Source of the DNA: Thermoplasmata archaeon
GTDB taxonomy: Archaea > Thermoplasmatota > Thermoplasmata > Lutacidiplasmatales > UBA184
DNA: 64,000 bases
Reading direction: 5' to 3'
Assembly: GCA_035499455.1 (NCBI GenBank)
Contig: DATJYS010000001.1
Coordinates: forward strand, 21,594-85,593
Under the pieces are notes generated by a model that did not search any database, was not told the DNA's origin, and saw only the letters and a list, made by a program, of their open reading frames with translations. The translations under genes were made by a program, and so were the position numbers. Every line of letters starts with the position of its first letter. Position 1 is the first letter of the stretch. Positions 11,547 to 52,470 of this stretch are shown piece after piece.

Positions 11547-12338
11547 ATGGAGTCCCACCGCTGGTATCCGCCGTCGTCCCGACGGGTCAACGAGGAGAAC
11601 TACGAACTCGCCGTGACGCCCGGCTCGTCGGCCCTGACGTGGATCTACGGTTTTCGCGCACCGGACGCCTCCGAGGCGGAACGCCTTTTGCGCGAGATCC
11701 GCGCGAAGGTCCAGGCGCTGGGAGGGACGGGAGCCCGTATGTGGATCACTCCCAACGCTCAACCCCCGAATCTAGCTGAACTGCTTTCCCGCTTTGAGTT
11801 CGAGCCGAAGGAGTCCGCCGAGGTGCTGGTCTACGACCTGTGGGACGGATCGGGGAACGGGGTGGTGCCGTCGTTCCGACCCGTTCCGGGACTGACGGTT
11901 CGGGAGACCACCAGCCGGGAGGAGTACGACGCGGTACAGAGCGTGACCACGACCGTCTTCGGTCTCCCGGCTCCCCCGGCGGCGGCCCAGGCGGGGTTCC
12001 TGGAACTGTACGAACGGCAGATCCGCGAGACCGGGCACTCGGGCCGGTTCCTCGCGGTGGACGGAGGACGGGCTGCCGGAGCCGGCGGCCTCGCGCTCGA
12101 AGGTCCCGTCGCGTTCCTCTGGGGTACCGGAGTCCTCACCGAGCTTCGCGGCCGGGGAATCTACGGCGCGATGGTGGACGCCCGGTGCCGCTCGGCGATT
12201 GACCAGGGAGCCGAGATCGCTCTCGTGGTCGCTCAGACCGGAACCTCGGGCCCGATCCTCAAGCGGCACGGGTTCCGGGTCGTGGGCCCGATCCGGGCCT
12301 ACGAAGCGCAGTGGACCCCGGGCGTCGCTGCCCCGTAG
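11547..12338 (+). CDS. GNAT-family acetyltransferase (two-lobed, 263 aa)
   Basis: C-terminal VAFLWGTGVLTELRGRGIYGAMVDARC...ILKRHGFRVVG (R-x-x-G-x-G/A acetyl-CoA motif). Real start taken as ATG 11547 (MESHRWY). The upstream part of track ORF 10860..12338 is antisense to DinB. Confidence 0.7.
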   Translation: MESHRWYPPSSRRVNEENYELAVTPGSSALTWIYGFRAPDASEAERLLREIRAKVQALGGTGARMWITPNAQPPNLAELLSRFEFEPKESAEVLVYDLWDGSGNGVVPSFRPVPGLTVRETTSREEYDAVQSVTTTVFGLPAPPAAAQAGFLELYERQIRETGHSGRFLAVDGGRAAGAGGLALEGPVAFLWGTGVLTELRGRGIYGAMVDARCRSAIDQGAEIALVVAQTGTSGPILKRHGFRVVGPIRAYEAQWTPGVAAP

Positions 12339-12610
12339 GAGCCTGTACCCTCGAGCGCTCCGGGTCGGTGCGCCGGATCGCCCCTCGCGCGGTGAGTCGA
12401 CGGCCCGCGGTGCGACCCGTCCGGTCACTCCCGAACGACCGCCGGGTCCGCTCTCGCCCAGAGAATCAGGTCCCGACCTCCCGCGTCGCGGCTGGGGCTC
12501 GCGCCCGCCCAATCGGGACGCGGGAGGAAGTGTCGCGGACTCGAGAGGCTCGGGAATCCTAGCGACCAACCCGGCGGCAGCTCCCCCGCGGTCTCGCATC
12601 GGAGCCCCTG

Positions 12611-12658
12611 AGCCATCCGTTAAACGAAACTACAGAGAATCTAAGTACTCGTTAAATT
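12611..12658 (+). promoter_or_regulatory. AT-rich putative promoter region of the RHH gene
   Basis: gttaaacgaaactacagagaatctaagtactcgttaaatt lies directly upstream of ATG 12659 in otherwise ~70% G+C DNA. Confidence 0.4.
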
Positions 12659-13069
12659 ATGTTAAACGCCGTGCGGAACGCTCGGGCCGATGCTCCCTCG
12701 ACCCGTTTCCTCGGGGTACGCCTCACGACCGAGGAGGACGACCTCCTCGACCAGTTCTGCCGAAAGCACGCGTTCGCGAACCGCTCCGAAGCGGTGCGCG
12801 CGCTCGTCCGCGAGGCTGCGAACGAGCGGCCGCGGGGCGGCGATCTGCCCGCCACGCTGCGCAACGAGCTCGAAGAGCTGGTCGAAGAGGGATACGCCAC
12901 GAATTTCGACGGCGCGCTCGCGCTCGCCGTCCATTCGGGGATCGTGGAGCTGGCCCGGACTCACACCGAGCGCATGCCGGCGTTGCGGAACCACGCGCGC
13001 GCGGCGAGCGAACGGCGCGAGGGCCGTCGACGAGCGGACCGGGAGGGACGGGGGTTCCTCCGGCGTTAA
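12659..13069 (+). CDS. Ribbon-helix-helix (CopG/Arc-type) DNA-binding protein
   Basis: FLGVRLTTEEDDLLDQFCRKHAFANRSEAVRALVREA is a classic RHH beta-alpha-alpha segment. Preceded by the only AT-rich stretch in the area (12611-12658). Confidence 0.6.
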   Translation: MLNAVRNARADAPSTRFLGVRLTTEEDDLLDQFCRKHAFANRSEAVRALVREAANERPRGGDLPATLRNELEELVEEGYATNFDGALALAVHSGIVELARTHTERMPALRNHARAASERREGRRRADREGRGFLRR

Positions 13070-13236
13070 CCCCCGGGACAAGGGATGGCAGCAACCGCAG
13101 GATCGATGAGCATCGCCTGGAGCGAACGAAGCGGCTTCATTTGCCGACTGTGCCGTCAGGACGCGAAGCATAATGAGGTGCTCCACATTTCGTACTGCCC
13201 CGTCCACGGGCTGAGCTCTCCGCTGGATCAGCTCCC

Positions 13237-13812
13237 GTGGCGGCCGGAGGCGAGAGGATCCCGCGTCTCTATACCCGTACGGGCGACCGAGGGACGACCG
13301 GTCTCGCCGGTGGCGTCCGTTTAGACAAGGAGTCGCCGCGGATCCGCGCCTACGGCACGTACGACGAGCTCGGAGCCCAGCTCGGGCTCTCCTGCGCCCT
13401 GCTCCCCGACTCGCTCGGGGAGATCCGCGCGGTCGTTCGTCGGCTGCAGGACGAGGTGTTCGTCGCTCAGGCGCAGCTCGCCGCGGCGCCGGGGGGACCC
13501 GCGCCGAAGCATCGGATCCTCGCCCGCCACACCGAACGCCTCGAGCGGGAGATCGACCGGTTCGACGCCGCGCATCCCGCGATCCGCAGCTTCGTCGTCC
13601 CGGGCGGGTCGGCTCCGGCCGCGGCGTTGCACGTCTGCCGGACCGTCTCGCGACGGGCCGAGCGGCAGCTGCTCGCCCTGCACCGGGAAGAACCCCAGCC
13701 CGACGAGCTTCTCGCGTGGGCGAACCGGCTGAGCGACCTATTGTTCGCGCTCGCCCTCGCCACCAACCACGGGCTCGGGGTCACCGAGACCCCGCCGGAC
13801 TACTCCGCGTAG
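13237..13812 (+). CDS. pduO: ATP:cob(I)alamin adenosyltransferase, PduO type
   Basis: IPRLYTRTGDRGTTGLAGGVRLDKESPRIRAYGTYDELGAQLG matches the PduO/MMAB N-terminal signature. GTG start. Confidence 0.85.
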   Translation: MAAGGERIPRLYTRTGDRGTTGLAGGVRLDKESPRIRAYGTYDELGAQLGLSCALLPDSLGEIRAVVRRLQDEVFVAQAQLAAAPGGPAPKHRILARHTERLEREIDRFDAAHPAIRSFVVPGGSAPAAALHVCRTVSRRAERQLLALHREEPQPDELLAWANRLSDLLFALALATNHGLGVTETPPDYSA

Positions 13813-13828
13813 GGCGGACGGAGGGATC

Positions 13829-15025
13829 GTGGAGGTCGGGGTCGTCGGCAAGCCGAACGTCGGGAAGTCGACGTTCTTCAACGCGCTCACGCTCCTCGAC
13901 GTCCCGATGGCCCCCTACCCGTTCACCACGACCGCCCCGAACCGGGGGATATCGGCGGTCCGCGCCCCGTGCCCGCACGTCGACAAGGGGACCCCCTGCA
14001 CCGCCGGGAACGCTCGGTGCGTCGACGGAACCCGGTGGGTGCCGGTGTCGCTGATCGACGTGCCCGGCCTCGTTCCGGGAGCCCACGAGGGGAAGGGGCT
14101 CGGCCACAAGTTCCTCGACGACCTCCGGCAAGCCGACGGGTTCGTCCAGGTCGTCGATCTGAGCGGCGGGACGGACGCCGAGGGCCAGATCGTGGCCCCC
14201 GGGACGCACGATCCTTCCCGGGAGGTCGCGTGGCTCGAGGAGGAGCTCGTCGCATGGATCGCGGAGGTGCTCGGCCGAGACTTCGTGCGCCACTCGCGCA
14301 GCGTGGAGCTCGAAGGCAAGAAGGTCGAGGAGTTTCTGACCGAGCGCCTGGCCGGCCTCTCGATCCCGACCCCCGCGATCCTGACGGCGCTGCGGAACGC
14401 CCCGGTCGAACGCGACCATCCGTCGCATTGGACGAACGAGCAACGCCTCGGGCTCGCCCGCGAGCTGCTCCGGTCCTCGAAGCCCCGGCTGGTCGCCGCG
14501 AACAAGGCCGACAAGGCGACGCGCGCCCAGGGGCTGGCGCTCACCGAGGCCGTTCGTCCACTCCCCGTCGTCCCGACCGCCGCCGACGCGGAGCTCACGC
14601 TGCGCCGCGCGGCCCGGGCGGGGATGGTGGAGTACCGGCCCGGCGACCCGTCCTTTACGGTCCGGGATCCGGGACGTTTCAACGCGGCGCAGACGGCCGC
14701 GCTCGCCGAGATCCGACGGGTCGTGGAGGCGTGGGGGACGACCGGGGTCCAGGAAGCGCTGGAGTCGACCGTCTTCTCCCGGCTCCACCAGATGGTCGTC
14801 TACCCCGTGGAGGACGAGACGCACTGGACGGACGGACGCGGCCGAGTGCTGCCCGACGCCCTGCTGGTCCCGGCCGGCATCCCCGCCCGCGCCCTCGCCT
14901 ACCGGGTGCACACGGACCTCGGGGAAGGATTCGTCCGGGCGATCGACGGGAGGACCCATCGGGCGCTGGCCGCGGACCACCCGCTGGAGCCGAACGCGGT
15001 GGTTCGGATCGTCTCGAAGAAGTGA
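13829..15025 (+). CDS. YchF/OLA1-like P-loop GTPase with C-terminal TGS domain
   Basis: G1 motif VGVVGKPNVGKSTFFNALT. Then PYPFTTTAPNRG and LIDVPGLVPGAHEGKGLG. TGS-like tail GFVRAIDGRTHRALAADHPLEPNAVVRIV. Confidence 0.85.
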   Translation: MEVGVVGKPNVGKSTFFNALTLLDVPMAPYPFTTTAPNRGISAVRAPCPHVDKGTPCTAGNARCVDGTRWVPVSLIDVPGLVPGAHEGKGLGHKFLDDLRQADGFVQVVDLSGGTDAEGQIVAPGTHDPSREVAWLEEELVAWIAEVLGRDFVRHSRSVELEGKKVEEFLTERLAGLSIPTPAILTALRNAPVERDHPSHWTNEQRLGLARELLRSSKPRLVAANKADKATRAQGLALTEAVRPLPVVPTAADAELTLRRAARAGMVEYRPGDPSFTVRDPGRFNAAQTAALAEIRRVVEAWGTTGVQEALESTVFSRLHQMVVYPVEDETHWTDGRGRVLPDALLVPAGIPARALAYRVHTDLGEGFVRAIDGRTHRALAADHPLEPNAVVRIVSKK

Positions 15026-22468: not shown

Positions 22469-22873
22469 TCAAGCTAGGACCGGACTCGCGACGTAAGTGC
22501 CGGTGACGACTGCCGTCGGCAAGCAGGTGTATAGACAAAGAGTGCCGAACACGTATCCACCGCCATTGCTCTCGAAGGTTCCAGCGCCGGATGTCCCGTT
22601 GACGAGGTACTTCAGTTCCATCGGAGCGCAACTCCACATCCCGAATTCCGTAGGAGAAGTCGCCGCCCAGTGGAAAGTAAAGTTAGTCCCGTTCACTGGC
22701 GACACAATCGCATCACCGCTGCAGTTGAAGTACGGGTCAGTCATGACGGGGCCCAAGAGAGTAAAGGATCGAGTCGAATCATCTGAACTGGGCGCCGAGT
22801 AGCCCGAAAGGATCGCCGCACTGCAGCCTAGAACGGCCGATAGGCAAACTGCGACCACCCAGACAGCCTTCAC
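22469..22873 (-). CDS. Small secreted Cys-containing protein (lipobox-like signal), unknown function
   Basis: MKAVWVVAVCLSAVLGCSAAIL (L-G-C lipobox-like), then NCSG, WSCAP and LCLYTCLP cysteines. Sits in the lower-G+C islet. No family recognised. Confidence 0.5.
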   Translation of the reverse strand: MKAVWVVAVCLSAVLGCSAAILSGYSAPSSDDSTRSFTLLGPVMTDPYFNCSGDAIVSPVNGTNFTFHWAATSPTEFGMWSCAPMELKYLVNGTSGAGTFESNGGGYVFGTLCLYTCLPTAVVTGTYVASPVLA

Positions 22874-23470: not shown

Positions 23471-24649
23471 ATGGGGCGGGTTACAATACGCTCAGCTGTG
23501 AATCGGGTCCGATTCTCGACACGGCCTGAATCGCGTGGAAGGGGCCCGCGTTCATCGACACCGGCGCACCCCCTTCTGGCGAACGGATTCCGAGTGGTAG
23601 GCGGCTTCTCTGTGGCGTTGCTCGCCCTTACCGGAACCTTGTCCGTAACCGCGGCTCCTCCCCCTCCCTTGCCATCAGGCACTTACGCTTACTTCGACTG
23701 CCTTCACGCTGCTATCACATTGAACTCGACGACCGTGTGCCATGATCAGCTTAGTCATCAGGTCGGGATAGCGCCAGGATCCGGAGGGAGCTTCCACTGG
23801 ACTATGACTTCGTCTCCAGACAGTGGTTACAGCTTTGCCTACTGGACCGCGAGCGGAGCTTGCTTAGGTTCTGCGTGTACCAGTCCCTCCTCCTCAAACC
23901 CGGTGAGGCTCAGTGTGACTTGTCCCGCCGGACAGCGCTGTCAGCCGACGGTCGAGCTAGCGGTGAACTACCCTCTGGTTGCGCCTGACAATTCACCGTG
24001 GGCGGGGTACGCGGTCACGGGGCCAACAGGAAGTGTGACCAAGGTTTCCGGCTCGTGGGTACAGCCCACAATCACCTGTTCTCCTAGTACTTCCTCCCAT
24101 TCTTCCTTCTGGGTAGGAATCGATGGCTACAACTATCATCAGACGTCAAATACGGTAGAACAGGCCGGAGTCGCGGGGTACTGTACGAGGGCTGGCACCC
24201 CCGCCTGCGAGGCCTGGTACCAGTTCGTACCTTCGGCCGGGGTTGATATCACGAATATCACACCTTCCGCCGGCGACATCGTCTCGGTGACGGTCTCATA
24301 CAATGCGGCTACTGCCATGTTCACGGTCAACTTGACGGATGGATCAGCCAGATTCTCCATAAGCCACAGCAATAGCATGGCCAAAGAGAATTCAGCTGAA
24401 TGCATCGCGGAAGACACCGTGCTCGGGAGCGGAAATTTTGCAGACTTCGGAGTCGCAGACTTTGGGAGCACCTATACAACGTCAGTTGGCTGCAGCGCGA
24501 AGATTAACGGGACCTCTGAGTCCTTCGGAGATTTCTCAACAACGACCGCTGTGGAGGTCGTAGACTCTTCGGGTAATGTGCTTGCGACAGTCTCTCCGCT
24601 CGACCCGCTTGGATCCAGCTTTTCGGTTACGTGGCAGCGCGCGACGTAG
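23471..24649 (+). CDS. Glutamic peptidase, family G1 (eqolisin / scytalidoglutamic-peptidase-like) with N-terminal B-repeat-like domain
   Basis: - Ordered G1 motifs: NSPWAGYAV, SFWVGIDGY, VEQAGVAG (catalytic Gln position), EAWYQFVP, AGDIVSVTV, NSAECIAED (catalytic Glu position), GNFADFGVADFG.
- N-terminal SGYSFAYWTASGACLG resembles InlB-type B-repeats.
- Start is uncertain. A hydrophobic segment VVGGFSVALLALTGTL lies ~45 aa in. Confidence 0.75.
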   Translation: MGRVTIRSAVNRVRFSTRPESRGRGPRSSTPAHPLLANGFRVVGGFSVALLALTGTLSVTAAPPPPLPSGTYAYFDCLHAAITLNSTTVCHDQLSHQVGIAPGSGGSFHWTMTSSPDSGYSFAYWTASGACLGSACTSPSSSNPVRLSVTCPAGQRCQPTVELAVNYPLVAPDNSPWAGYAVTGPTGSVTKVSGSWVQPTITCSPSTSSHSSFWVGIDGYNYHQTSNTVEQAGVAGYCTRAGTPACEAWYQFVPSAGVDITNITPSAGDIVSVTVSYNAATAMFTVNLTDGSARFSISHSNSMAKENSAECIAEDTVLGSGNFADFGVADFGSTYTTSVGCSAKINGTSESFGDFSTTTAVEVVDSSGNVLATVSPLDPLGSSFSVTWQRAT

Positions 24650-27758: not shown

Positions 27759-27843
27759 CGAAGACCCGGTACCTTCCCGGTGGAGCGCGCCGTACTTGAG
27801 GCTGGCGACGCGCCGTTCATCGTTCGTCCCGACGCGCGATCGG

Positions 27844-30228
27844 ATGCCGCGACGCCGCGACCGGCTACCGGTGAGCGGTCCCGAGTCGGCCCGGCAACCT
27901 TCGGGGCGGACCGCCTGGACGTTCGTGCCCCGGAGCGGAGTGCCCTCCGGTCGGGACGACGCGTTCCGGAGGCGCGCGGAGGTCGAAGCCGCGGTACACG
28001 CCGGCCACGGGCTCGGCGTCGATCTCTCCCTTCGGCTCTTCTCGGGGCCCGAGCCGCGGACCGTCCTCGAGTCGGCGGCGTCGGACGGAGTCCGGTGGGT
28101 CGAGCGGGCGTTGACGCCGTGCTACGAGGGGGGACAGTGGATTCGATCGCCTCCGACCGGGATCGATTCGGAGTCGTCCGTCGCCATCGGTCGACGCGTC
28201 CTCCTCCCGGGCGAGCGCCTCGCCGCGCCCGTCGAATGGGGGATCGTGATGCGAACCGCCACCGTCGCGTTTGCGGCGCTCCGTCCGGGGGTCGAGCTCC
28301 GTTGCCGACTGACGCCGGTCGCCACGCGGCCGGCAAGGGTGGGGGGCTCCCCGCGGTACGATTCTCGCTTCGAGCGGCTCTCGACCCGCCCGGGGCCCCG
28401 CCCCACTGTTCCGGGCGCTCCCGCCGAAGCGCGAGCCCCAGCGCGCGGTCCGTTCTGGAGCGCGGCCGTGGAACTGAGACTCCCCGTCTCGGTCGAGGAT
28501 CGAGAACGCCGAACGGCGATCGCAGCTGCGGAGGCCGCCTGGCGTCGTCTCGACGACGTCGGCCTCTCCTTCTCGGGCGGTAGCCTGGCGCGGCTCGTCG
28601 CGTCCCCCACGCTGCTGTCGTCCGAGGAGCTGCTCGCCGTACTCCCGGGACGAGACGGCGGCCTGCAGGACGCCCTCGCTCCGGCCTCCGGACCGATCGG
28701 CATCCCGCTCGGCCGCACGTCGGCCGGAACGGTCGTCAGCGCTCCGATCGAGGCCGGGCAGGGTCGGCACCTCGCGATCCTCGGGGAGACCGGGATGGGG
28801 AAGAGCTCCCTGATGGTCGCGCTCGCGGTTCGAGCCGCCGAGCGAGGGGGGATCGTGGTCCTCGACCCCCTCGGAGAGACGGCGCGGGAGATCCGTGCCG
28901 AGCTCGGCCCCGAGAACGACCGGGTCCGTTTCGTCTCGGCCGCCGCGAAGGACGCGCCGACCCTGAACGCGCTCGACGGATGCGGCGTAGGTACGGACGT
29001 CGACACCGTCCGCTCGGAGCGACGGATCGCCGACATCGTGCACGCCCTGCGACGCGTGCGGTCGGGACGCTACGCCGACTCCTCGTTCTGGGGACCCCGC
29101 CTGGAGGAGATGATGACCCGCGCGGTCCGAGCCGCCTCCGCGTTCCCCGACGGCTCGCTCGAGGACGCGCACACGTTATTGTCGACCTACGGACTCACGC
29201 GCCGGGCGGCTCCCCCGGCGAGCGAGGAGCCCCTCCGCGAGCTCGCGCAGCGGATCCGCGAGCGGCCAGAGGACGCGGACGGTGCGCGTCGGCTGCTCCA
29301 TGAGGTCGTTCGGAATCCGACGCTCGCGCGGATGCTGTGCGCTCGGCGTCCCACGATCCGGGCCGCGGACTTCGTCGCTCCCGGCGAGATCCTCCTCGTG
29401 TCGGGCGATGCCGGTGAGGTCGGCGAGTCGACCGCACGGTACCTGATCGCGGTCTACCTCGCGCTCGTTTGGTCGGAGCTCCTTGTCGGCGAGCGCCCGA
29501 CCAAGACGTTCGTCTTCCTCGACGAGGCGCAGTGGTTCGCCCACGAGAGCCTGGGAGAGATGCTCCGGTTGGCCCGACGTCGCAACGTGCACACGTTGCT
29601 GGCCACGCAGTCCGTCGCCTCCCTGCCGGAGTCGGTCGCCGAGGCCGTGTGGACGAACGTCGCGGACTTCGTGGCGTTTCGCGGGCTACCCGAGGAGGCG
29701 CGCGAGATCGGCCGGACCGCGCCCGGGGTGACCGCCGAGCGACTCCTTGCCCTCCCTCGTGGCCGGGCGGTCGCACTGATCGGCAAGGGCCGGGTCGTCT
29801 CCTGGATCCGGACGGTGCGAATCCCCCCGTCCCCCGATCGCGCCCCGACGCGACGACCCCCGGTCGCGAAGAGGGGTTCCGGGGCGGACGAACCGTCCCC
29901 GATCCTGACCGCGGGGTGCGTGGGTCGGACTCCCTCGGAACTCGGGACCCCGGGGGCGCTGCTCGAGTGGCTCGGGGAGCGCGCACGTTCCATCGAAGAG
30001 GGAGCGCTCCTTCGCGTATCGCTGGACGAACTTCGGAGGCGCTCCGGGGGCGATGCGGACGCGGTCCGCCGACTCGGCGCGGAGCTCGGGCGTCGGGGTG
30101 CGATCCGCCGGTCCGAGCGGTCGCCCGACGGCACTGTCTGGTGGCTCCAGCCCGCCCTGCTCCCGTCGGGCGAAGCCGGGCCGGTGCGCGCGGGGTCGGG
30201 CGGTTCCGAGAAGCCACAACCCTCTTAG
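27844..30228 (+). CDS. FtsK/HerA-superfamily (DUF87 / VirD4-TraG-like) P-loop ATPase with unassigned N-terminal domain and C-terminal winged helix
   Basis: - Walker A: LAILGETGMGKSSLMVAL (~28783-28806).
- Walker B: KTFVFLDEAQWF (~29509-29529).
- Motif HTLLATQSVASLP.
- C-terminal LRVSLDELRRRSGGDADAVRRLGAELGRRGAIRRSERSPDGTVWWL looks like a wHTH.
- No TM segments.
- The ORF opens at TTG 27796; I prefer ATG 27844. Confidence 0.75.
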   Translation: MPRRRDRLPVSGPESARQPSGRTAWTFVPRSGVPSGRDDAFRRRAEVEAAVHAGHGLGVDLSLRLFSGPEPRTVLESAASDGVRWVERALTPCYEGGQWIRSPPTGIDSESSVAIGRRVLLPGERLAAPVEWGIVMRTATVAFAALRPGVELRCRLTPVATRPARVGGSPRYDSRFERLSTRPGPRPTVPGAPAEARAPARGPFWSAAVELRLPVSVEDRERRTAIAAAEAAWRRLDDVGLSFSGGSLARLVASPTLLSSEELLAVLPGRDGGLQDALAPASGPIGIPLGRTSAGTVVSAPIEAGQGRHLAILGETGMGKSSLMVALAVRAAERGGIVVLDPLGETAREIRAELGPENDRVRFVSAAAKDAPTLNALDGCGVGTDVDTVRSERRIADIVHALRRVRSGRYADSSFWGPRLEEMMTRAVRAASAFPDGSLEDAHTLLSTYGLTRRAAPPASEEPLRELAQRIRERPEDADGARRLLHEVVRNPTLARMLCARRPTIRAADFVAPGEILLVSGDAGEVGESTARYLIAVYLALVWSELLVGERPTKTFVFLDEAQWFAHESLGEMLRLARRRNVHTLLATQSVASLPESVAEAVWTNVADFVAFRGLPEEAREIGRTAPGVTAERLLALPRGRAVALIGKGRVVSWIRTVRIPPSPDRAPTRRPPVAKRGSGADEPSPILTAGCVGRTPSELGTPGALLEWLGERARSIEEGALLRVSLDELRRRSGGDADAVRRLGAELGRRGAIRRSERSPDGTVWWLQPALLPSGEAGPVRAGSGGSEKPQPS

Positions 30229-30253
30229 CCACGGGACGGCCTGATTTTCTCCG

Positions 30254-31060
30254 ATGGAACCTGAGACGGGACCGGCCCCCGTGCTCGGAGCCCGGGAGCT
30301 CGCGAGCCCCCGGACCACGCTCGAGCGGTGCACGACCGGCATCGAGGGCCTCGACAGCATTCTCGAGGGCGGGATCCCCCGGGGCAACATGGTCCTCGTC
30401 GCCGGGAGCGTCGGGACGGGCAAGACGACCCTCTGCCTCGAGTTCCTGGTGCGAGGGGCCGAGAAGTCCGAGCGCTCCCTGTTCATCTCCGTCACGGAGT
30501 CCTCCGGCAAGCTGATCCAGAATCTCTCGACGTTCGACTTCTTCCGCCCGGAGCTCGTCGCGAACGGTTCGCTCGTCTTCGTCGACCTGCCCGTGATCTA
30601 CCGGAAGCTCGGCCTCGAGCGCGAGGAGCTCGCCCCCGAGGATATCGACATCCTCCTGCGGACGATCTCGAGCCTCGTGCGCACCCTCGGCGTCCGGCGG
30701 CTGGTGCTCGACAGCCTCACCTCGCTCTGCTACCGGATCCGGCGCGACGAGCAGATCCGGGACTTCCTGCTCCGCCTCGGCGGGGAGCTGAGCGACGCCG
30801 GCTGCACCTCGCTGCTCGTCTCCGAGATCGGCCCGCAGGCCGGGCGCTACTCGGCGCACGGCGTGGAAGAGGCGATCGTCGACGGGGTGATCCTGCTCTG
30901 GAACAACCGCCGGATGGGCGACATCCTCCGCGTCCTGCAGATCGTCAAGATGCGGGGGACCGCCCACTCCCGAACCCAGTACGTGATCGAGCTGACGCCG
31001 ATCGGCCTGCTGATGGCGCCCCACCTGAAGGGGGCCCGCGGCGCGGACGGGGGCGGATAG
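30254..31060 (+). CDS. Single-domain KaiC/RadA-like RecA-superfamily ATPase (motifs intact)
   Basis: TGIEGLDSILEGGIPRGNMVLVAGSVGTGKTTLCLEFL (Walker A), RRLVLDSLTSL (Walker B), LRVLQIVKMRGTAHS. Confidence 0.8.
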   Translation: MEPETGPAPVLGARELASPRTTLERCTTGIEGLDSILEGGIPRGNMVLVAGSVGTGKTTLCLEFLVRGAEKSERSLFISVTESSGKLIQNLSTFDFFRPELVANGSLVFVDLPVIYRKLGLEREELAPEDIDILLRTISSLVRTLGVRRLVLDSLTSLCYRIRRDEQIRDFLLRLGGELSDAGCTSLLVSEIGPQAGRYSAHGVEEAIVDGVILLWNNRRMGDILRVLQIVKMRGTAHSRTQYVIELTPIGLLMAPHLKGARGADGGG

Positions 31061-31063
31061 TCC

Positions 31064-31648
31064 GTGCCTCCGGTCGACGTCGGCGACCGTCTGCGCGCCC
31101 TGCCGCTCGGGAGCGCGGTCGCCCTGAAGCTCGACCCGCGCGAGTACGCGGACCACTACTTCGCCGTGCTGAACGCCACCCTGCGCGACGTCGGGGCCGA
31201 GGCGAGCAACCACACGGTCTACATCGCGGTGACGAACCCCGCGTCGTTCGTCTGGTCGCTCGCGCAGGCGCTGGACGTGACGCCCGACCGGATCTCGTTC
31301 GTGGACGCGATCAGCCACCTGATGATGAACTACTCGAACCCGCTGCCGAACGCGACGTACGTCGAGAGCCCGCGCGCGCTCGAGGAGATCATGCTGCGCA
31401 CCGAGTACCTGCTCCGGCGCTATCCGCACGCGCGCACGACGGTCGTCATCGACAGCGTGAACTCGCTCGCCATCCACAACCCCCCCGAGCTCCTCTCCGA
31501 GTTCTTCCACATCCTCCTCAACAATCTGAAGAGCCGCCAGGTGCTCACGCTCGTCCTCGAGACGACGGACGAGGAGGCCGCGGCGATCGACCAGATGCTG
31601 AACCTGGTCGTCGACGAGACGATCGACGTGGCGCGGGCGGGTCGGTGA
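31064..31648 (+). CDS. RecA/KaiC-fold-like protein lacking a P-loop
   Basis: The position of Walker A reads GSAVALKLDPREYADHYF. A Walker-B-like strand TTVVIDSVNSLA is retained. G/C-rich third positions. GTG start 3 nt after the upstream stop. Confidence 0.6.
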   Translation: MPPVDVGDRLRALPLGSAVALKLDPREYADHYFAVLNATLRDVGAEASNHTVYIAVTNPASFVWSLAQALDVTPDRISFVDAISHLMMNYSNPLPNATYVESPRALEEIMLRTEYLLRRYPHARTTVVIDSVNSLAIHNPPELLSEFFHILLNNLKSRQVLTLVLETTDEEAAAIDQMLNLVVDETIDVARAGR

Positions 31649-31650
31649 GC

Positions 31651-32412
31651 ATGTCGGACGCGCAGCGGATCTTCGACGTCCCCGAGATCGACCAGCCGCT
31701 CGCCCCCGCGCTCCGTCCGGGGTGGCTCGCGGTGCTCGTCGGCACCTCGGGCTCCGGGGCGCCGCTCTTGGCGAAGCAGTTCGCGAACGCCGGGGTCGGC
31801 ACCACGCCCGTCCTGTTCTACACGACGTACGAGCGGACGGACGACGTCCGCAGCGCGTTCGACGACTTCGGCTGGGACCCGGCGGACATCAAGATCGTGA
31901 ACCTCGCCGACGAGTACTACGAGCGGGTGCTCGTGAAGGGCCTCGAGATCGCCCGCGTGCGCGAGCGCGGCCTCTCCCTCGACGACCTGACCCGAGAGGA
32001 GCCGGAGGGCCGCTCCCGGCCGTCGTTCAGCCTGACGGACCGGATGCTCGCCGACCTCGCCACGATCGATGCGCCGTTCCGGATGGTCGTCGACTCGGTC
32101 GACTTCTTCTTCGAGGTGCTCGACCCCCGCGAGGTGATCACCGTCGCCCGGCAGATCCGCCACCGCTGCCAGACGATCGGGGGGCAGGCCCTCATCGCGG
32201 TCCACTCGCCCGGCCACGAGCGCGCGACCACGACCCGGCTCGAAGACCTCGCCGACCTCGTCCTCACGCTCCGGGCCGAGCCGCACGGGGACCGGCACCA
32301 GCACACCCTCTCCGTCGAGAAGGTCGGGAACCGGCCGGACCTCACCCGCATCTGGCGCGGGATCCTGGACGACCGCGGCTGGCGGGTCGAGCCGCCGACC
32401 TCCTCCCGATAG
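31651..32412 (+). CDS. KaiC-like protein with degenerate P-loop
   Basis: GWLAVLVGTSGSGAPLLAKQF (GxxGxG but Lys-Ser/Thr replaced by Ala-Pro; 31741-31764). Walker-B-like FRMVVDSVDFF. GGTGA 5 nt upstream of the ATG. Only the tail of track ORF 30328..32412 is the gene. Confidence 0.65.
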   Translation: MSDAQRIFDVPEIDQPLAPALRPGWLAVLVGTSGSGAPLLAKQFANAGVGTTPVLFYTTYERTDDVRSAFDDFGWDPADIKIVNLADEYYERVLVKGLEIARVRERGLSLDDLTREEPEGRSRPSFSLTDRMLADLATIDAPFRMVVDSVDFFFEVLDPREVITVARQIRHRCQTIGGQALIAVHSPGHERATTTRLEDLADLVLTLRAEPHGDRHQHTLSVEKVGNRPDLTRIWRGILDDRGWRVEPPTSSR

Positions 32413-32477
32413 CGACCTACCTCCGCGCCACCGAACCTTTATCGGTCCGCCCCCGGTCCTTGAGGGGAGGGAACGCT

Positions 32478-33263
32478 GTGGAAGACGTGGTCATCCGAAC
32501 GCTCGAGAAGGTGTCGCTCCGCGACCCCATCCTGGTGGAGGGCCTCCCCGGTGTCGGGAACGTCGGCAAGCTCGCCGCGGACTACCTCCGCGACCAGCTC
32601 CCCGCGAAACCCCTCGCGACGATCTACTCGAAGTTCTTCCCCCCGCAGGTCTACGTGAGCGAGACAGGGGTCATCCGCCTCGTCTCGAACGAGCTCGCCT
32701 ACTGGAAGGCGCCCGCCTCCGCGCCGCACGACATCCTCGTGCTCGGCGGCGACTACCAGGGGATCAGCCCCGAGGGCCAGTACGAGATCACCGAGCGGGT
32801 GCTCGACTACTGCGCCGGCCTCGGCGTGAAGGAGGTCTACACGCTCGCCGGCTTCGCGCAGGGGCACGCGGTCGAGACGCCGCGCGTCCTGGGCGCGGCG
32901 ACCCTCCCCGCGCGCGTCGAGGCGATGAAGAAGTTCGGCGTCGTCTTCTCCCGCAACGACCCCGGCGGGGGGCTGATCGGCGCGAGCGGGCTGTTCCTCG
33001 GCCTCGGCAAGATGTTCGGCATGGAGGGGGTCTGCCTGATGGGCGAGACGAGCGGCTACTTCGTCGACCCCCACTCCGCGGAAGCGGTCCTCAAGGTCCT
33101 CGGCAAGGTGCTCCGCGTCGAGATCGACTTCACGGCCCTCGAGACGAAGGCGCGGGAGATCGACCGGATCGCCCAGAAGATCCACGAGGTCGAGCAGCGC
33201 TCGGGCGACCCCTCGGGCGGAACCCCGGCGCCGACCCGCGAGGACGTCGGGTACATCGGCTGA
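32478..33263 (+). CDS. PAC2-family (proteasome assembly chaperone-like, ATP-grasp-type) protein
   Basis: PILVEGLPGVGNVGKLAADYLRDQL...ILVLGGDYQ...GLIGASGLFLGLGKMFGMEGVCLMGETSGY. GTG start 32478 within track ORF 31722..33263. Confidence 0.8.
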   Translation: MEDVVIRTLEKVSLRDPILVEGLPGVGNVGKLAADYLRDQLPAKPLATIYSKFFPPQVYVSETGVIRLVSNELAYWKAPASAPHDILVLGGDYQGISPEGQYEITERVLDYCAGLGVKEVYTLAGFAQGHAVETPRVLGAATLPARVEAMKKFGVVFSRNDPGGGLIGASGLFLGLGKMFGMEGVCLMGETSGYFVDPHSAEAVLKVLGKVLRVEIDFTALETKAREIDRIAQKIHEVEQRSGDPSGGTPAPTREDVGYIG

Positions 33264-50247: not shown

Positions 50248-51309
50248 CTACGACCGGCGCCGCGTCAGGCGCTCCGCCAGCTCTCCGAGCAACGGCTTTC
50301 CTTCGGTCCGGATCGCCCGGCTCCGCTTCAGCCGGCTCAAGGCCCGGGCGGTCAGCTGGGCGATCCGCTGCTCGGAGTACTCGAGGCTGCCGGTCGACCG
50401 GATCGTCTCACTCGCCGCGGCCACCTCGGCCGGGCTCGCATCGGGGTTGCCGAGGACGCGCCGCAGGCTCTCCCGATCCGGCTCCTTGCCGGTCTGCCAG
50501 GCGCGGACGACCAGCAACGTGCGCTTTCCCTCGATCAGGTCGTTCGCGCTCTTTCCCGCCTCCGCGGCGTCGAACCCCGCGCCCAGGACGTCGTCGCGGA
50601 GCTGGAAGGCGACCCCGAGGTCGGTGGCGATCGATTCGATGTCGCGGAGCGAGGTCGGCCGCGCGCCGCCCAGCAGGGAGCCGATCTTGAGCGGGGCCGA
50701 GACCGTGTAGACGGCGGACTTGAGCCGGTGAACGTCCAGCACTTCCGCCTCGCTCACCGCGCCCGGCGCGAGCGTGCCGTTGCGGATGTCGAGCAGCTGA
50801 CCGTAGGCGGTCAGCCGCGTCATCTGGACGTACTCGGCGAGCGCCGCGAGCCGGGCCGCCGCGGGGACCTTGACGGAGAGGAGCGCCTCGACGGTGAACG
50901 GTTCCTCGACATCCCCGAGGGTGATGCCGATCCCGACCCCGTAGTCGTCGGCGGAGCCGCCGAGGGCTTCGCGCCGGTGGGCGGCGGCGAGCGCGCGGTG
51001 CACCGCGACCCCGCCCCGCCGCTCCTCGGCGTGGTCGATGATGTCGTCGTGGATCAGCATCCAACTCTGGAAGTGCTCGACCGCCGCCGCGGCGTCCAGC
51101 ACCGGGCGCGGGTCCCGACCGGTCGCGAGATAGTACCCCGCCAGGACGAGGACCGCGCGGAACCGCTTCCCGCCCCGCAGCGTGAAATCGCGGTTCAGGT
51201 CGAGGTACGGTCGCAGCGAGGCCGGAGCGGAGGTCCCGGCGTTCGCGTACGACGCGCGGAGGCGGTCCTCGAGCCTCGGCAGGTAGCGGTAGAGCTGGGC
51301 GACGTCCAC
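50248..51309 (-). CDS. idsA: Polyprenyl (geranylgeranyl) diphosphate synthase
   Basis: GGKRFRAVLVLAGY..., first Asp-rich motif LIHDDIIDHAEERRG, second FQLRDDVLG. GTG 51309 (VDVAQLYRYL). The rest of track ORF 50248..52293 is spurious. Confidence 0.85.
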   Translation of the reverse strand: MDVAQLYRYLPRLEDRLRASYANAGTSAPASLRPYLDLNRDFTLRGGKRFRAVLVLAGYYLATGRDPRPVLDAAAAVEHFQSWMLIHDDIIDHAEERRGGVAVHRALAAAHRREALGGSADDYGVGIGITLGDVEEPFTVEALLSVKVPAAARLAALAEYVQMTRLTAYGQLLDIRNGTLAPGAVSEAEVLDVHRLKSAVYTVSAPLKIGSLLGGARPTSLRDIESIATDLGVAFQLRDDVLGAGFDAAEAGKSANDLIEGKRTLLVVRAWQTGKEPDRESLRRVLGNPDASPAEVAAASETIRSTGSLEYSEQRIAQLTARALSRLKRSRAIRTEGKPLLGELAERLTRRRS

Positions 51310-51332
51310 GGCGCCTGCGTCTGGACGGGGAC

Positions 51333-51342
51333 CATATTTAAC
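51333..51342. promoter_or_regulatory. Single AT-rich TATA-like element shared by divergent idsA and TPR genes
   Basis: catatttaac lies 24-33 nt from the idsA GTG (51309) and 22-31 nt from ATG 51364. The two start codons are only 54 nt apart. Confidence 0.45.
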
Positions 51343-51363
51343 ACAGAGCGATTGGCGCCTTCG

Positions 51364-52470
51364 ATGGCAAGCACGCCGTTCGTCCAGCTGGCGGGGAGCG
51401 TCGTCGAGGCGATGGGCGAGCGGATGGACGCGGTCAAGCCGACCCCCGAAGGCGTCGTCGTCCAGACGAGCGACGGCCTCCTCTACGCGTTCCTCGAGGA
51501 CCCGACGAAGGTCTCCCTCGGAGCGGCCCGCCGCCTGCTCGAGAGCGGGCCCGGGGGGTCGGTGCGCCTCGTCGTGCTCACCCCAGGCCACCTGCCGCTC
51601 GTCATCGCAGCCGAGCTCGCCCGCGCGGGAGCGACCCTGGTCGAGGGACCGCGGTTCGCCGAGCTCGTCCGTCAGCTGGGTCTCGGCACGCTGCTCGGGG
51701 AGGAGCCGCGCGCGATCCCTGCGGACCAGCGGCGCCTTCTGCCGAGCGCTCAGCAGCTGGATGACGTGATGCAACGGGCTCGGACGTGGCTCGGCTGGGG
51801 GGTTCCAGCCCTCTCGTTGCGGTTCTACCGCCAGGCTGCGGCGCTGAAGCCCGAGTTCGTCCCGGCGAAGATCGGGCTCGGGCGCTCGCTCCTCGCGCTC
51901 GGTCTTCCCGACGACGCGGACCGCCTGTTCGACGAGGTGATCGCAGCCCATCCCGACGACGTGGACGCGCGTCTGGGAAAGGCGGCCGTCCTCGGCGCGA
52001 AGGCGAAGCCCGACCGGGAAGTGGAGGTCTACCGGGCGCTGCTCGCCGAGGACGAGGCGCGGACCGAGGTCCGGGCCCATCTGGTGGCTGCCTTGGTCGA
52101 CCTGGGCGACTGGCCCAGCGCGCGCGTGGAGCTCGAAGCGATGCTCTCCCGCACCCCCGAGGACCCGCAGCTGCGATTCCTGCATGCGGTCTCCCTGACG
52201 AAGACCGGCGAGTCGCGCCTCGGGGAGGAGGAGCGGAAGGAAGCGCGAACGCTCGGGCTGCCGTACGACCGTGAGGTAGCCCTCTGCGAGCACCTCGGCC
52301 TTCCGGCCCCCGAACGTCCACCCCCGTCCGAAGGGTCGAGGACCCTTTCCCGCGCCGCCCCGACGACCGCCGCTCCCGTCCGTCCGCCGAAGTCCGCCAG
52401 ATCGACCCGGCGGGCACGGGCGCCCTCGGCTGCCCCAAAGAAGGCGCGTCCCACCCGCAAACGTAAGTAG
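51364..52470 (+). CDS. TPR-repeat protein with N-terminal endonuclease-like (Mrr-cat-like) domain and Lys/Arg-rich tail
   Basis: N-terminus: VVVQTSDGLLYAFLEDPTKVSLGAARRLL...VRLVVLTPGHLPLVIAAELARAGATLVEGPRFAELV. TPR-like helices follow (ALSLRFYRQAAALKPEFVPAKIGLGRSLLALG...). Tail: RPPKSARSTRRARAPSAAPKKARPTRKRK. Confidence 0.6.
   Translation: MASTPFVQLAGSVVEAMGERMDAVKPTPEGVVVQTSDGLLYAFLEDPTKVSLGAARRLLESGPGGSVRLVVLTPGHLPLVIAAELARAGATLVEGPRFAELVRQLGLGTLLGEEPRAIPADQRRLLPSAQQLDDVMQRARTWLGWGVPALSLRFYRQAAALKPEFVPAKIGLGRSLLALGLPDDADRLFDEVIAAHPDDVDARLGKAAVLGAKAKPDREVEVYRALLAEDEARTEVRAHLVAALVDLGDWPSARVELEAMLSRTPEDPQLRFLHAVSLTKTGESRLGEEERKEARTLGLPYDREVALCEHLGLPAPERPPPSEGSRTLSRAAPTTAAPVRPPKSARSTRRARAPSAAPKKARPTRKRK

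Follow-up and report, generated by a model that had tools for sequence, protein, structure and literature searches.

A KaiC-type ATPase with degenerate RecA-fold partners between an orphan ATPase gene and a PAC2 gene in soil and peat Thermoplasmata

We analysed a 64,000-nucleotide stretch of a Thermoplasmata archaeon genome (contig DATJYS010000001.1, assembly GCA_035499455.1; the window), archaeal DNA with a G+C content of ~71%. Five genes on its + strand encode an ATPase (27796–30228, 810 aa), KaiC1 (30254–31060, 268 aa), Kai2 (31064–31648, 194 aa), Kai3 (31651–32412, 253 aa from ATG) and PAC2 (32478–33263, 261 aa, GTG start). An earlier note on this DNA had read them as one module of an FtsK/HerA-type ATPase, three KaiC-like paralogues and a PAC2-like protein. 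Its coordinates, with gaps of 25, 3, 2 and 65 nt between the genes, are correct, as is an alternative Kai3 start at GTG 31645, which creates a GTGA overlap with Kai2. The gene-by-gene annotations agree with profile searches (Pfam, TIGR00162 and others). We consider it somewhat more probable than otherwise that the block consists of three independent units, namely an orphan ATPase, a KaiC trio and PAC2, which are adjacent only in one soil/peat clade of Thermoplasmata. This reading follows from the occurrence of the trio without ATPase or PAC2 outside the clade, from separate predicted promoters, and from a loose link between the ATPase and KaiC1.

The KaiC trio and PAC2

KaiC1 matches the Pfam KaiC family (PF06745; gathering cut-off 26.6 bits) with 188.5 bits (E = 1.5e-55). 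Its Protein Data Bank (PDB) matches are KaiC (3e-53), where it resembles the CI domain, and PH0186 (1e-37). The Walker A motif reads GSVGTGKT, and the pattern GxxGxGK[ST] is intact in 74/74 KaiC1 sequences, the window and orthologues taken together. KaiC1 also has a KMRG(T) motif, whose position we take to be that of the KaiC arginine finger. Judged by its motifs, KaiC1 is the only trio member predicted to possess both a complete Walker A and a complete Walker B.

Kai3 matches Pfam KaiC with 38.9 bits (E = 8e-10) and is homologous to KaiC1 by hhalign comparison (97% probability, E = 1.6e-11). Its Walker A reads GTSGSGAP, with the lysine and the threonine replaced, while the Walker B aspartate is retained. 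The lysine is lost in every orthologue where the motif can be located, and the pattern there is G[ST]xGxG[AVIL][PE]. The degenerate P-loop is also found in the orthologues of L085, L086 and L088. In addition, Kai3 carries an inserted helical segment.

Kai2 has no P-loop or Walker A motif and is without the C-terminal ~50 residues of KaiC1. Sequence searches with Kai2 are weak: the Pfam KaiC score is 25.2 bits (E = 1.2e-5), just under the cut-off, DUF7504 matches weakly, the hhalign comparison with KaiC1 gives 17% probability, and the Kai2 profile finds no match among PDB sequences. Homology was instead settled by predicted structure. The AlphaFold2 (AF2) model has a mean predicted local distance difference test score (pLDDT) of 90 and a predicted template-modelling score (pTM) of 0.89. 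Foldseek matches it to Elp456 (E = 7.6e-7), to PH0284 (template-modelling score, TM, 0.70), and to RecA and KaiC as well. According to the model, Kai2 has the RecA/KaiC fold.

The trio is one complete ATPase with two degenerate RecA-fold paralogues. It does not have the make-up of circadian KaiC, namely CI and CII domains of ~500 aa and KaiB and KaiA partners. Specifically, the trio proteins are single-domain and 194–268 aa long, the KaiC equivalog model NF006799 gives 152 bits with a cut-off of 408, and no KaiB-like neighbour is present among the annotated open reading frames (ORFs) of the window.

P-loop-less KaiC-like (DUF7504) domains also stand at the C-termini of 900–1800-aa proteins, as in the distant Kai2-like proteins P0304, P0313, P0317 and P0292. 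Those proteins bear tetratricopeptide (TPR)/SNAP-like repeats as well as Ig-like, BatD or CARDB domains, and a domain of this kind is also found after DUF835. These occurrences suggest a broad family of degenerate KaiC-like output or adaptor domains.

PAC2 matches TIGR00162 over its full length with 258.6 bits (cut-off 200) and is a member of that family. Its closest solved structure is PDB entry 3vr0 (6e-54, residues 2–259), deposited under the name 'putative uncharacterized protein', which we take to be PbaB of Pyrococcus furiosus. The C-terminal tail D[LV]GYIG is present in 60/62 orthologues. With a full-length match and a conserved tail, the protein shows no notable difference from PbaB/TIGR00162. 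The earlier description as a PAC2-like chaperone is right as to PAC2 and can be refined: PAC2 is an ordinary archaeal PbaB-type proteasome assembly chaperone/activator, a housekeeping neighbour outside the KaiC unit.

Gene order outside and inside the clade

An exhaustive HMMER search with Kai2 as query returned 384 representative clusters at E < 1e-3. In the cluster list, identity drops from 65% to 41% or less, and below this gap stand ~190-aa proteins of other lineages, including Methanomassiliicoccales and unclassified Thermoplasmatota or Euryarchaeota. The out-of-clade sample comprised six distinct genome contexts, from Methanomassiliicoccales and other Thermoplasmatota, and the best 80 of at least 561 metagenome stretches with Kai2; pilins were counted at the 42 loci with enough downstream sequence.

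In all six genome contexts (6/6), the genes of KaiC1-Kai2 or KaiC1-Kai2-Kai3 overlap at their junctions. Next come one or two same-strand Pilin_N genes with a classic GVSPVIATILMVAITVVLAAV signal, and neither a DUF87 ATPase nor PAC2 is found in any of the six. Among the metagenome loci, KaiC1 is upstream of Kai2 in 64/64, and 26/59 also carry Kai3. A pilin motif with a class III signal lies on the same strand within 3 kb downstream in 42/42, with two or more such motifs in 17. The ATPase (0/80), PAC2 (0/80) and any other neighbour gene of the window (0/80) are absent from the metagenome loci. The conserved module is KaiC1-Kai2(-Kai3)-pilin, and the clade of the window is the exception, with the ATPase and PAC2 instead. 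Kai2 is an obligate partner of KaiC1, and Kai3 is an optional third subunit.

The earlier note had argued that the block is not a pilus system because there are no pilin genes. The window indeed contains none, but the argument is misleading: in other lineages, pilin genes come after the orthologous KaiC unit at every one of the 42 loci. A KaiC-like gene beside class-III-signal pilins marks a candidate KaiC regulator of type IV pili (T4P). The orthologous unit elsewhere has this arrangement throughout, while the window and 80 in-clade loci have it nowhere.

KaiC-family proteins of arCOG01171, arCOG01174 and arCOG01175 show a strong association with archaeal T4P loci, and a regulatory role has been predicted for them (Makarova, Koonin & Albers 2016, PMC4858521). 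Like the trio, they are single-domain KaiC-like ATPases beside pilin or T4P genes. Inactivated KaiC homologues are also known among them, and both this fact and the KaiC-T4P association are already in the literature. The trio unit differs in being a fixed set of abutting genes, one active and one or two degenerate paralogues, and in lying directly upstream of stand-alone pilins in Thermoplasmatota, which are missing in the clade of the window. Similarly, ArlH (FlaH) is, like KaiC1, a single-domain KaiC-like protein encoded with type-IV-filament genes, and it binds the ArlI hexamer, a hexameric ATPase, in a nucleotide-dependent manner (as cited in PMC4858521). However, the window has no arlI, arlJ or archaellin genes, and there are three paralogues where the archaellum has one protein. 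In Haloferax, disruptions of cirA, a KaiC-like gene, are among the mutations that suppress the defect in motility seen on pilin deletion, and cirA deletion leads to hypermotility (PMC10983859). CirA of Haloferax volcanii is thereby genetically tied to pilin-dependent motility regulation, but it is a single protein in a haloarchaeal arl neighbourhood, with no degenerate partners described.

We propose that KaiC1-Kai2-Kai3 is an old operon of Thermoplasmatota and that its products would assemble into a RecA-type ring or stack of unlike subunits, much as Elp456 or the Rad51 paralogues do. A heteromer is suggested by the abutting or overlapping genes, the strict co-occurrence, the Elp456-like fold, and the high conservation of Kai2, although it has no P-loop. 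KaiC1 would supply ATP binding, hydrolysis and possibly autophosphorylation, and Kai2 and Kai3 would supply interfaces. By analogy, the complex may regulate the biogenesis or expression of type IV pili, or serve there as an adaptor, in a nucleotide-dependent manner. A five-gene 'translocase + RecA ring + chaperone' machine is for the most part unsupported and is set aside as a false lead. In its place stands the KaiC1-Kai2(-Kai3) unit, present in more than 560 metagenomic stretches; at all loci examined, its active KaiC-type ATPase comes with a RecA-fold partner that has no P-loop. It gives the proposal that KaiC proteins regulate pili a concrete, minimal and probably heteromeric candidate for purification and knock-out.

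Elp456 and the Rad51-paralogue complexes are built from different RecA/KaiC-fold paralogues whose nucleotide sites are in part degenerate, and Elp456 is the best structural match to Kai2. In contrast to the trio, they are eukaryotic, act on tRNA or DNA substrates and have another gene context, and the trio has no sequence-level membership in either. It is extremely improbable that the trio corresponds, in archaea, to eukaryotic Elp4/5/6, the hetero-hexamer responsible for tRNA in Elongator. Such an identity would agree with faint matches to the Elp4 and Elp5 families, with the Elp456 chains at the top of the Kai2 Foldseek list, with three RecA-fold paralogues with degenerate P-loops, and with the abundance of RNA-modification genes nearby (Nop5, SpoU, THUMP). 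However, the Foldseek scores are of the same order of magnitude as those of RecA and KaiC, and the faint matches of KaiC1 to PAXNEB (Elp4; 18.2 bits, cut-off 28) and of Kai2 to Iki1 (Elp5; 13.6 bits, cut-off 22.5) fall short of membership. Moreover, no Elp3-like gene is present among the annotated ORFs of the window, Kai3 is missing in more than half of the lineages, and the conserved partners of the unit are pilins.

Within the clade, one genome per GTDB species was scanned for the ATPase. It was found in at least 143 species, and the best 80 loci were examined (the in-clade set). Nearly all of these are labelled Thermoplasmata metagenome-assembled genomes (MAGs), mainly from soil or peat, and they include Ca. 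Lutacidiplasma silvani (order Ca. Lutacidiplasmatales). The five genes lie side by side at nearly all of these loci, and ~70 related genomes of soil Thermoplasmata retain this adjacency. The three KaiC-like paralogues do move as one set: the KaiC1/Kai2 and Kai2/Kai3 junctions are nearly always 0–10 nt in the ~70 in-clade loci, alignment offsets allowed for, and the order and the overlapping junctions recur in distant Thermoplasmatota. The gap between Kai3 and PAC2 is 31–83 nt in nearly all in-clade loci measured.

Both flanks of the block consist of housekeeping genes. Flank 1 holds aIF2-alpha, L1, L10, PurF, Nop5 and a divergently transcribed DRG-type GTPase; flank 2 holds Methyltransf_28, a Toprim protein, FtsY, prefoldin, a THUMP protein and ArgRS, as well as L15e and a SpoU-type methyltransferase, both assigned from their translations alone. 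About 10 of the flanking genes also keep their order in the clade. Because the whole region from Nop5 to L15e is syntenic, adjacency within the clade says little about function. FtsY and prefoldin lie near the KaiC unit both in Methanomassiliicoccales and in the window; shared ancestry of this arrangement was considered and dropped, as the orientation differs.

Several features make the link between the ATPase and KaiC1 a loose one. Opposite-strand genes intervene in four loci; they encode a membrane protein (L011, L017) or DUF1697 (L078, L080). No KaiC gene follows the ATPase in L014 and L076. Rates and codon usage are discordant as well. The slowest genes of the region are KaiC1, Kai2, PAC2 and the DRG GTPase, with median identities of 78–81% in the clade (KaiC1, 78%; Kai2, 80%), while the ATPase is the fastest-evolving, with 45%. 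The G+C content at third codon positions (GC3) is 0.85 for the ATPase and 0.96–0.97 for KaiC1 and Kai2 (KaiC1, 0.96). No pilin motif was found with a strict pattern in the window and the 80 in-clade loci, or with a relaxed pattern in the window. The adjacent pilin genes are gone in this clade.

Some individual loci have further features. In L014 (12523–17079), the trio does not follow the ATPase, and the locus has a secreted protein and two paralogous REC-X-helix-turn-helix (HTH) regulators. In L076 (2664–6753), the ATPase is bracketed by two paralogous winged-HTH-like genes, with the trio not following. The basal in-clade genome L080 has three tandem ~205-aa N-terminally anchored proteins between the ATPase and KaiC1 (12243–14259), which end in C(S/T)AVGTCP. 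They have no Pfam match, and marginally match (E = 0.005) a 175-aa gene beside Kai2 in Methanomassiliicoccales (L081:10788–11315, − strand). In the latter genome, a type III-A (Csm) CRISPR-Cas cluster (L081:13634–20570) lies ~3 kb downstream of the KaiC-pilin unit.

The ATPase

Homologues of ~785 aa span 95% of the ATPase. Since they cover the N-terminal 300 residues, this region is real, and the 586-aa version of the gene caller was rejected as too short. The earlier size of ~800 aa and the quoted motifs hold, and GETGMGKS, FVFLDEAQ and LLATQS were located at residues 330–337, 572–579 and 601–606. The start is ambiguous (TTG 27796 or ATG 27844); homologues align from residue ~25–40 on. Walker A and Walker B are invariant in a 27-sequence alignment, in which most sequences end ...PQPS.

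The AF2 model (pLDDT 80) predicts four parts and a tail. Specifically, the N-terminal alpha/beta region (~39–290) resembles two beta-alpha-beta-beta-alpha-beta units; the motor has an all-alpha insertion between Walker A (330–337) and Walker B (572–579); residues 681–714 form a disordered linker; and the C-terminal domain (713–785) is winged-helix-like, with the order H-E-H-H-E-E. The short C-terminal tail is the one that ends in ...PQPS. No transmembrane or hydrophobic segment is found in the ATPase, the maximum KD19 value being 1.52, inside the motor.

Pfam assigns DUF87 (2e-8), with weak matches to TraG-D_C and TrwB_AAD_bind. Foldseek against the PDB returns TrwK/VirB4 (E = 9e-15, TM 0.41 over the full length), TrwB/VirD4 (E ~ 4e-11, TMt 0.62), DndH-C (TMt 0.61) and also HerA. 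The likeness to VirB4 is in the fold only: the VirB4 model TIGR00929 gives 15.9 bits with a cut-off of 643. The HerA equivalogs give 13.7–20.5 bits with cut-offs of 800–970, and the ATPase lies far below every cut-off of the HerA, VirB4 and CedD NCBIfam equivalog models.

The ATPase shares the motor fold with all-alpha insertion with VirD4/TraG/TrwB, to which the weak Pfam matches also point, and with VirB4 and the plasmid DUF87/TraM-recognition ATPases. In contrast to them, it has no N-terminal membrane anchor and no neighbouring type IV secretion system (T4SS) or relaxase genes; its neighbours are housekeeping genes, in a chromosomal core position. With HerA-NurA it shares the superfamily and the DUF87 match. 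HerA-NurA identity was rejected on three grounds, namely low HerA scores, the absence of NurA among the annotated ORFs, and an N-terminal region modelled as alpha/beta units, not a HAS barrel.

These results bear out what the earlier note had set aside. The block is not HerA-NurA. It is not conjugation or Ced, as the CedD and VirB4 models score far under their cut-offs and the partner genes are absent. Nor is it an archaellum, with KaiC1 scoring 39.6 bits to the ArlH model NF052589 (cut-off 215). Among the annotated ORFs of the window there is no NurA, FlaI/J, T2SS-E/F, pilin, integrase or Elp3, and Mre11 and Rad50 were not found there either.

The motor shares 25–29% identity with proteins encoded on plasmids of actinobacteria, Bacillus and haloarchaea, whose annotations read DUF87, TraM-recognition or T4SS coupling protein. 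The ATPase and these relatives have a WGPR motif in common, located in the insertion. The likeness is motor-only, since the N- and C-terminal domains of the ATPase are not found in them. A virus or provirus as explanation was rejected, with no relatives of the ATPase in IMG/VR and no tRNA or integrase close to the block. One distant relative, on a Haladaptatus plasmid (L089:2484–9589), is the last gene of a same-strand cluster. That cluster also has a second, 970-aa AAA_10/DUF87 ATPase, and the two may be a haloarchaeal conjugation-like VirB4 + VirD4 pair.

The top profile match of the motor in all libraries searched is PADLOC mad8 (1e-19). Membership in the MADS anti-phage system was rejected, because among the four proteins run through PADLOC (ATPase, KaiC1, Kai2 and Kai3) only mad8 of the eight-gene mad operon is matched, with no other mad component. 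Apart from the motor match, PADLOC gave weak HerA-model matches for the ATPase and, for KaiC1, a weak match of the P-loop to the same mad8 profile. The MADS preprint gives no domain information on mad8.

The models describe the ATPase as an orphan, soluble motor of the VirB4/VirD4(TrwB)/HerA class, neither HerA nor a canonical coupling protein. It is probably an NTP-driven ring translocase. Because its C-terminus is winged-helix-like, it probably works on DNA or another nucleic acid. The modelled fold and the winged-helix-like C-terminus suggest derivation from a mobile element. In at least 143 species, this orphan plasmid-type ATPase occupies a core position of the chromosome. In L017 (9953–12309, a long-read MAG), the ATPase frame is split into two overlapping ORFs, a frameshifted pseudogene or an assembly error.

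The winged-helix-like C-terminus also bears on a reading in which the ATPase is a DNA-repair motor and the trio are RadA/Rad51-paralogue-like recombination mediators (aRadC, Rad55-57, BCDX2). Such mediators are typically heteromers of active and degenerate RecA-fold paralogues, the Kai2 fold is RecA-like, and KaiC1 weakly matches RadA, RadB and RAD51D. However, KaiC1 scores 188 bits to KaiC and 20–25 bits to Rad51 and RecA. Elsewhere the unit is conserved beside pilins and not beside repair genes, and the annotated window holds no NurA, Mre11 or Rad50, which leaves no nuclease or helicase partner. We regard this reading as very unlikely.

Predicted promoters and the relation of the ATPase to the trio

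A cis-element upstream of KaiC1 (30217–30253, + strand) is a predicted promoter. It begins with a B recognition element (BRE)/TATA-like box, caaCCCTCTTAG (30217–30228, +), which overlaps the last ATPase codons and the TAG stop and lies ~30 nt before the KaiC1 start. A GGC(C/T)...TTTTCT stretch comes after the box, just before ATG 30254, and the conserved DNA around the ATPase stop reads caaCCCTCTTAGG-N~10-GGCTCGTTT-N~5-cgATGGA. In the clade, the box keeps a fixed distance from the KaiC1 ATG, with an A/T peak at −31 to −25 in a 71% G+C genome, and its strict pattern is present at 44/72 in-clade loci. Where the ATPase stops earlier, the box is kept in non-coding DNA (L028, L033, L035, L048, L059, L069, L070/71 and L074). 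The insertion in L011 and L017 is flanked by two copies of CCCTCTTAGG, one of which ends the ATPase while the other precedes KaiC1.

Out-of-clade KaiC1 genes, which have no ATPase upstream, have a typical archaeal BRE/TATA, cgaaaaCCCTAAAGG, TCATATAG or TCAAATAG, at the same distance. The trio-bearing loci among them read cgaaaaCCCTAAAGG, close to the in-clade consensus aaaCCCTCTTAGG. From this pattern we infer that the box is the ancestral promoter of a leaderless or near-leaderless KaiC1-Kai2-Kai3 transcript, and that overlap with this promoter accounts, at least in part, for the conservation of the PQPS* end of the ATPase (cca caa ccc tct tag).

The intervening DNA of L011 (12248–15150) and L017 (12298–13565) is one shared insertion, of 2.9 kb and 1.3 kb, with minus-strand membrane-protein genes. 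The CCCTCTTAGG direct repeat resembles a target duplication by which the end of the ATPase and the TATA-like box of KaiC1 were both kept.

A second BRE/TATA-like box, gAACCTTTATCGg (32433–32445, +), lies ~36–40 nt before the PAC2 GTG. An A/T-rich hexamer at −45 to −25 of PAC2 is found at 55/65 in-clade loci, compared with 4% of random 60-mers of the window, and an aaCCTTTATCG core is visible in eight PAC2 upstream sequences. PAC2 is predicted to have its own promoter. This box argues against a joint action of the trio with PAC2/PbaB in proteasome assembly or substrate delivery, for which the position of PAC2 65 nt downstream of Kai3, its similar spacing in the clade and its similarly slow rate could be cited. 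With PAC2 near none of the out-of-clade KaiC units examined, and with PbaB-type proteins (TIGR00162) being widespread housekeeping genes, we judge such a role highly improbable.

Two scans of the region added nothing to these boxes. Rfam, searched for a known RNA element in the intergenic motif, gave no match across 20–40 kb of the window, and a bacterial-type promoter and terminator scan gave nothing useful, as expected in an archaeon.

Three outcomes had been named in the earlier note as speaking against a five-gene module: homologues that are not syntenic outside this genome, separate transcription, and a match of the block to a characterised system. The first two were found, by computation. 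Neither the ATPase nor PAC2 lies close to any of the out-of-clade KaiC units (0/80 metagenome loci, 0/6 genome contexts), and the conserved promoter-like boxes before KaiC1 and PAC2 predict separate transcription. In the account with three units, the ATPase would have been acquired once by the clade ancestor and landed upstream of KaiC1, with its 3' end overlapping the KaiC1 promoter, and PAC2 would be a housekeeping PbaB chaperone under its own promoter. Single-clade synteny and a conserved protein tail (PQPS*) call for caution in general, as they can reflect shared ancestry and an overlapping promoter, not function.

Several points weigh against this account and against the pilus-linked role of the trio. 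The promoter calls are inferred from sequence. In most in-clade genomes the ATPase stop is only 25–60 nt from the KaiC1 start, on the same strand and with no strong terminator; because only a short T-tract precedes the KaiC1 ATG, read-through from the ATPase is possible. The QPS tail is kept in L011 and L017 though detached from KaiC1, so that a protein-level role of the tail may exist too. No PilB/TadC-type machinery lies beside the KaiC-pilin units, and the mechanistic link to the pilus accordingly rests on adjacency and analogy. The presence of the ATPase coincides perfectly with the absence of pilins, which is one evolutionary event, yet compatible with a functional swap. As to novelty, our literature search found no description of an active KaiC with a P-loop-less partner beside stand-alone pilins in Thermoplasmatota. 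Makarova et al. (mBio, 2017) reportedly proposed a 'KaiC-like signalling hub' and may already describe it.

The coincidence of ATPase presence and pilin absence bears on an alternative, the reading of the earlier note restricted to this clade, in which the ATPase and a KaiC1/2/3 heteromer are one machine. By analogy, the KaiC-like ring would dock on and gate the hexameric translocase, in place of the pilin-linked output. The binding of the KaiC-like ArlH to ArlI, a hexameric ATPase of the FtsK-HerA superfamily, is a precedent (cited in PMC4858521). The ATPase and the trio are also on the same strand and 25–60 nt apart in most of the ~70 loci, the ATPase occurs only in the lineage whose trio lost its pilin neighbours, and the invariant motor motifs show that the enzyme is maintained. 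However, the in-clade synteny spans the whole region, KaiC1 has its own ancestral predicted promoter, opposite-strand genes separate the two in four lineages and two lineages have no trio downstream, the rates and codon usage of the ATPase and the trio are discordant, and no ATPase-trio co-occurrence was found out of the clade. On balance one machine is unlikely. A rewiring of the KaiC ring onto the ATPase in this clade is about as unlikely or slightly more so. In its most novel form, at the less likely end of this range, an ancient pilus-serving KaiC ring would now control a newly acquired soluble VirB4/VirD4-type translocase with a winged-helix DNA-binding tail. If true, the result would be a KaiC-gated translocase for DNA (or protein) that has no membrane apparatus, and no such combination is known to have been described. 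Three independent units thus remain the reading we favour.

Three further observations concern the wider material. Between 22000 and 25000 of the window, the G+C content falls to 0.60–0.66, compared with ~0.71 elsewhere, and this stretch may be a recently acquired island; it carries a small secreted protein (22469–22873, − strand) and a Peptidase_A4 acid protease (23471–24649). At 50728–52470 (+), the ORF of a 580-aa TPR protein is nearly wholly overlapped by an antisense 681-aa ORF (region 50248–52470) with similarly high GC3; the Pfam check covered the + strand ORF. L021 (DAIDCO010000034.1) is titled 'bacterium' yet has the full Thermoplasmata-type Nop5-DRG-ATPase-KaiC region, and is probably a mislabelled MAG.

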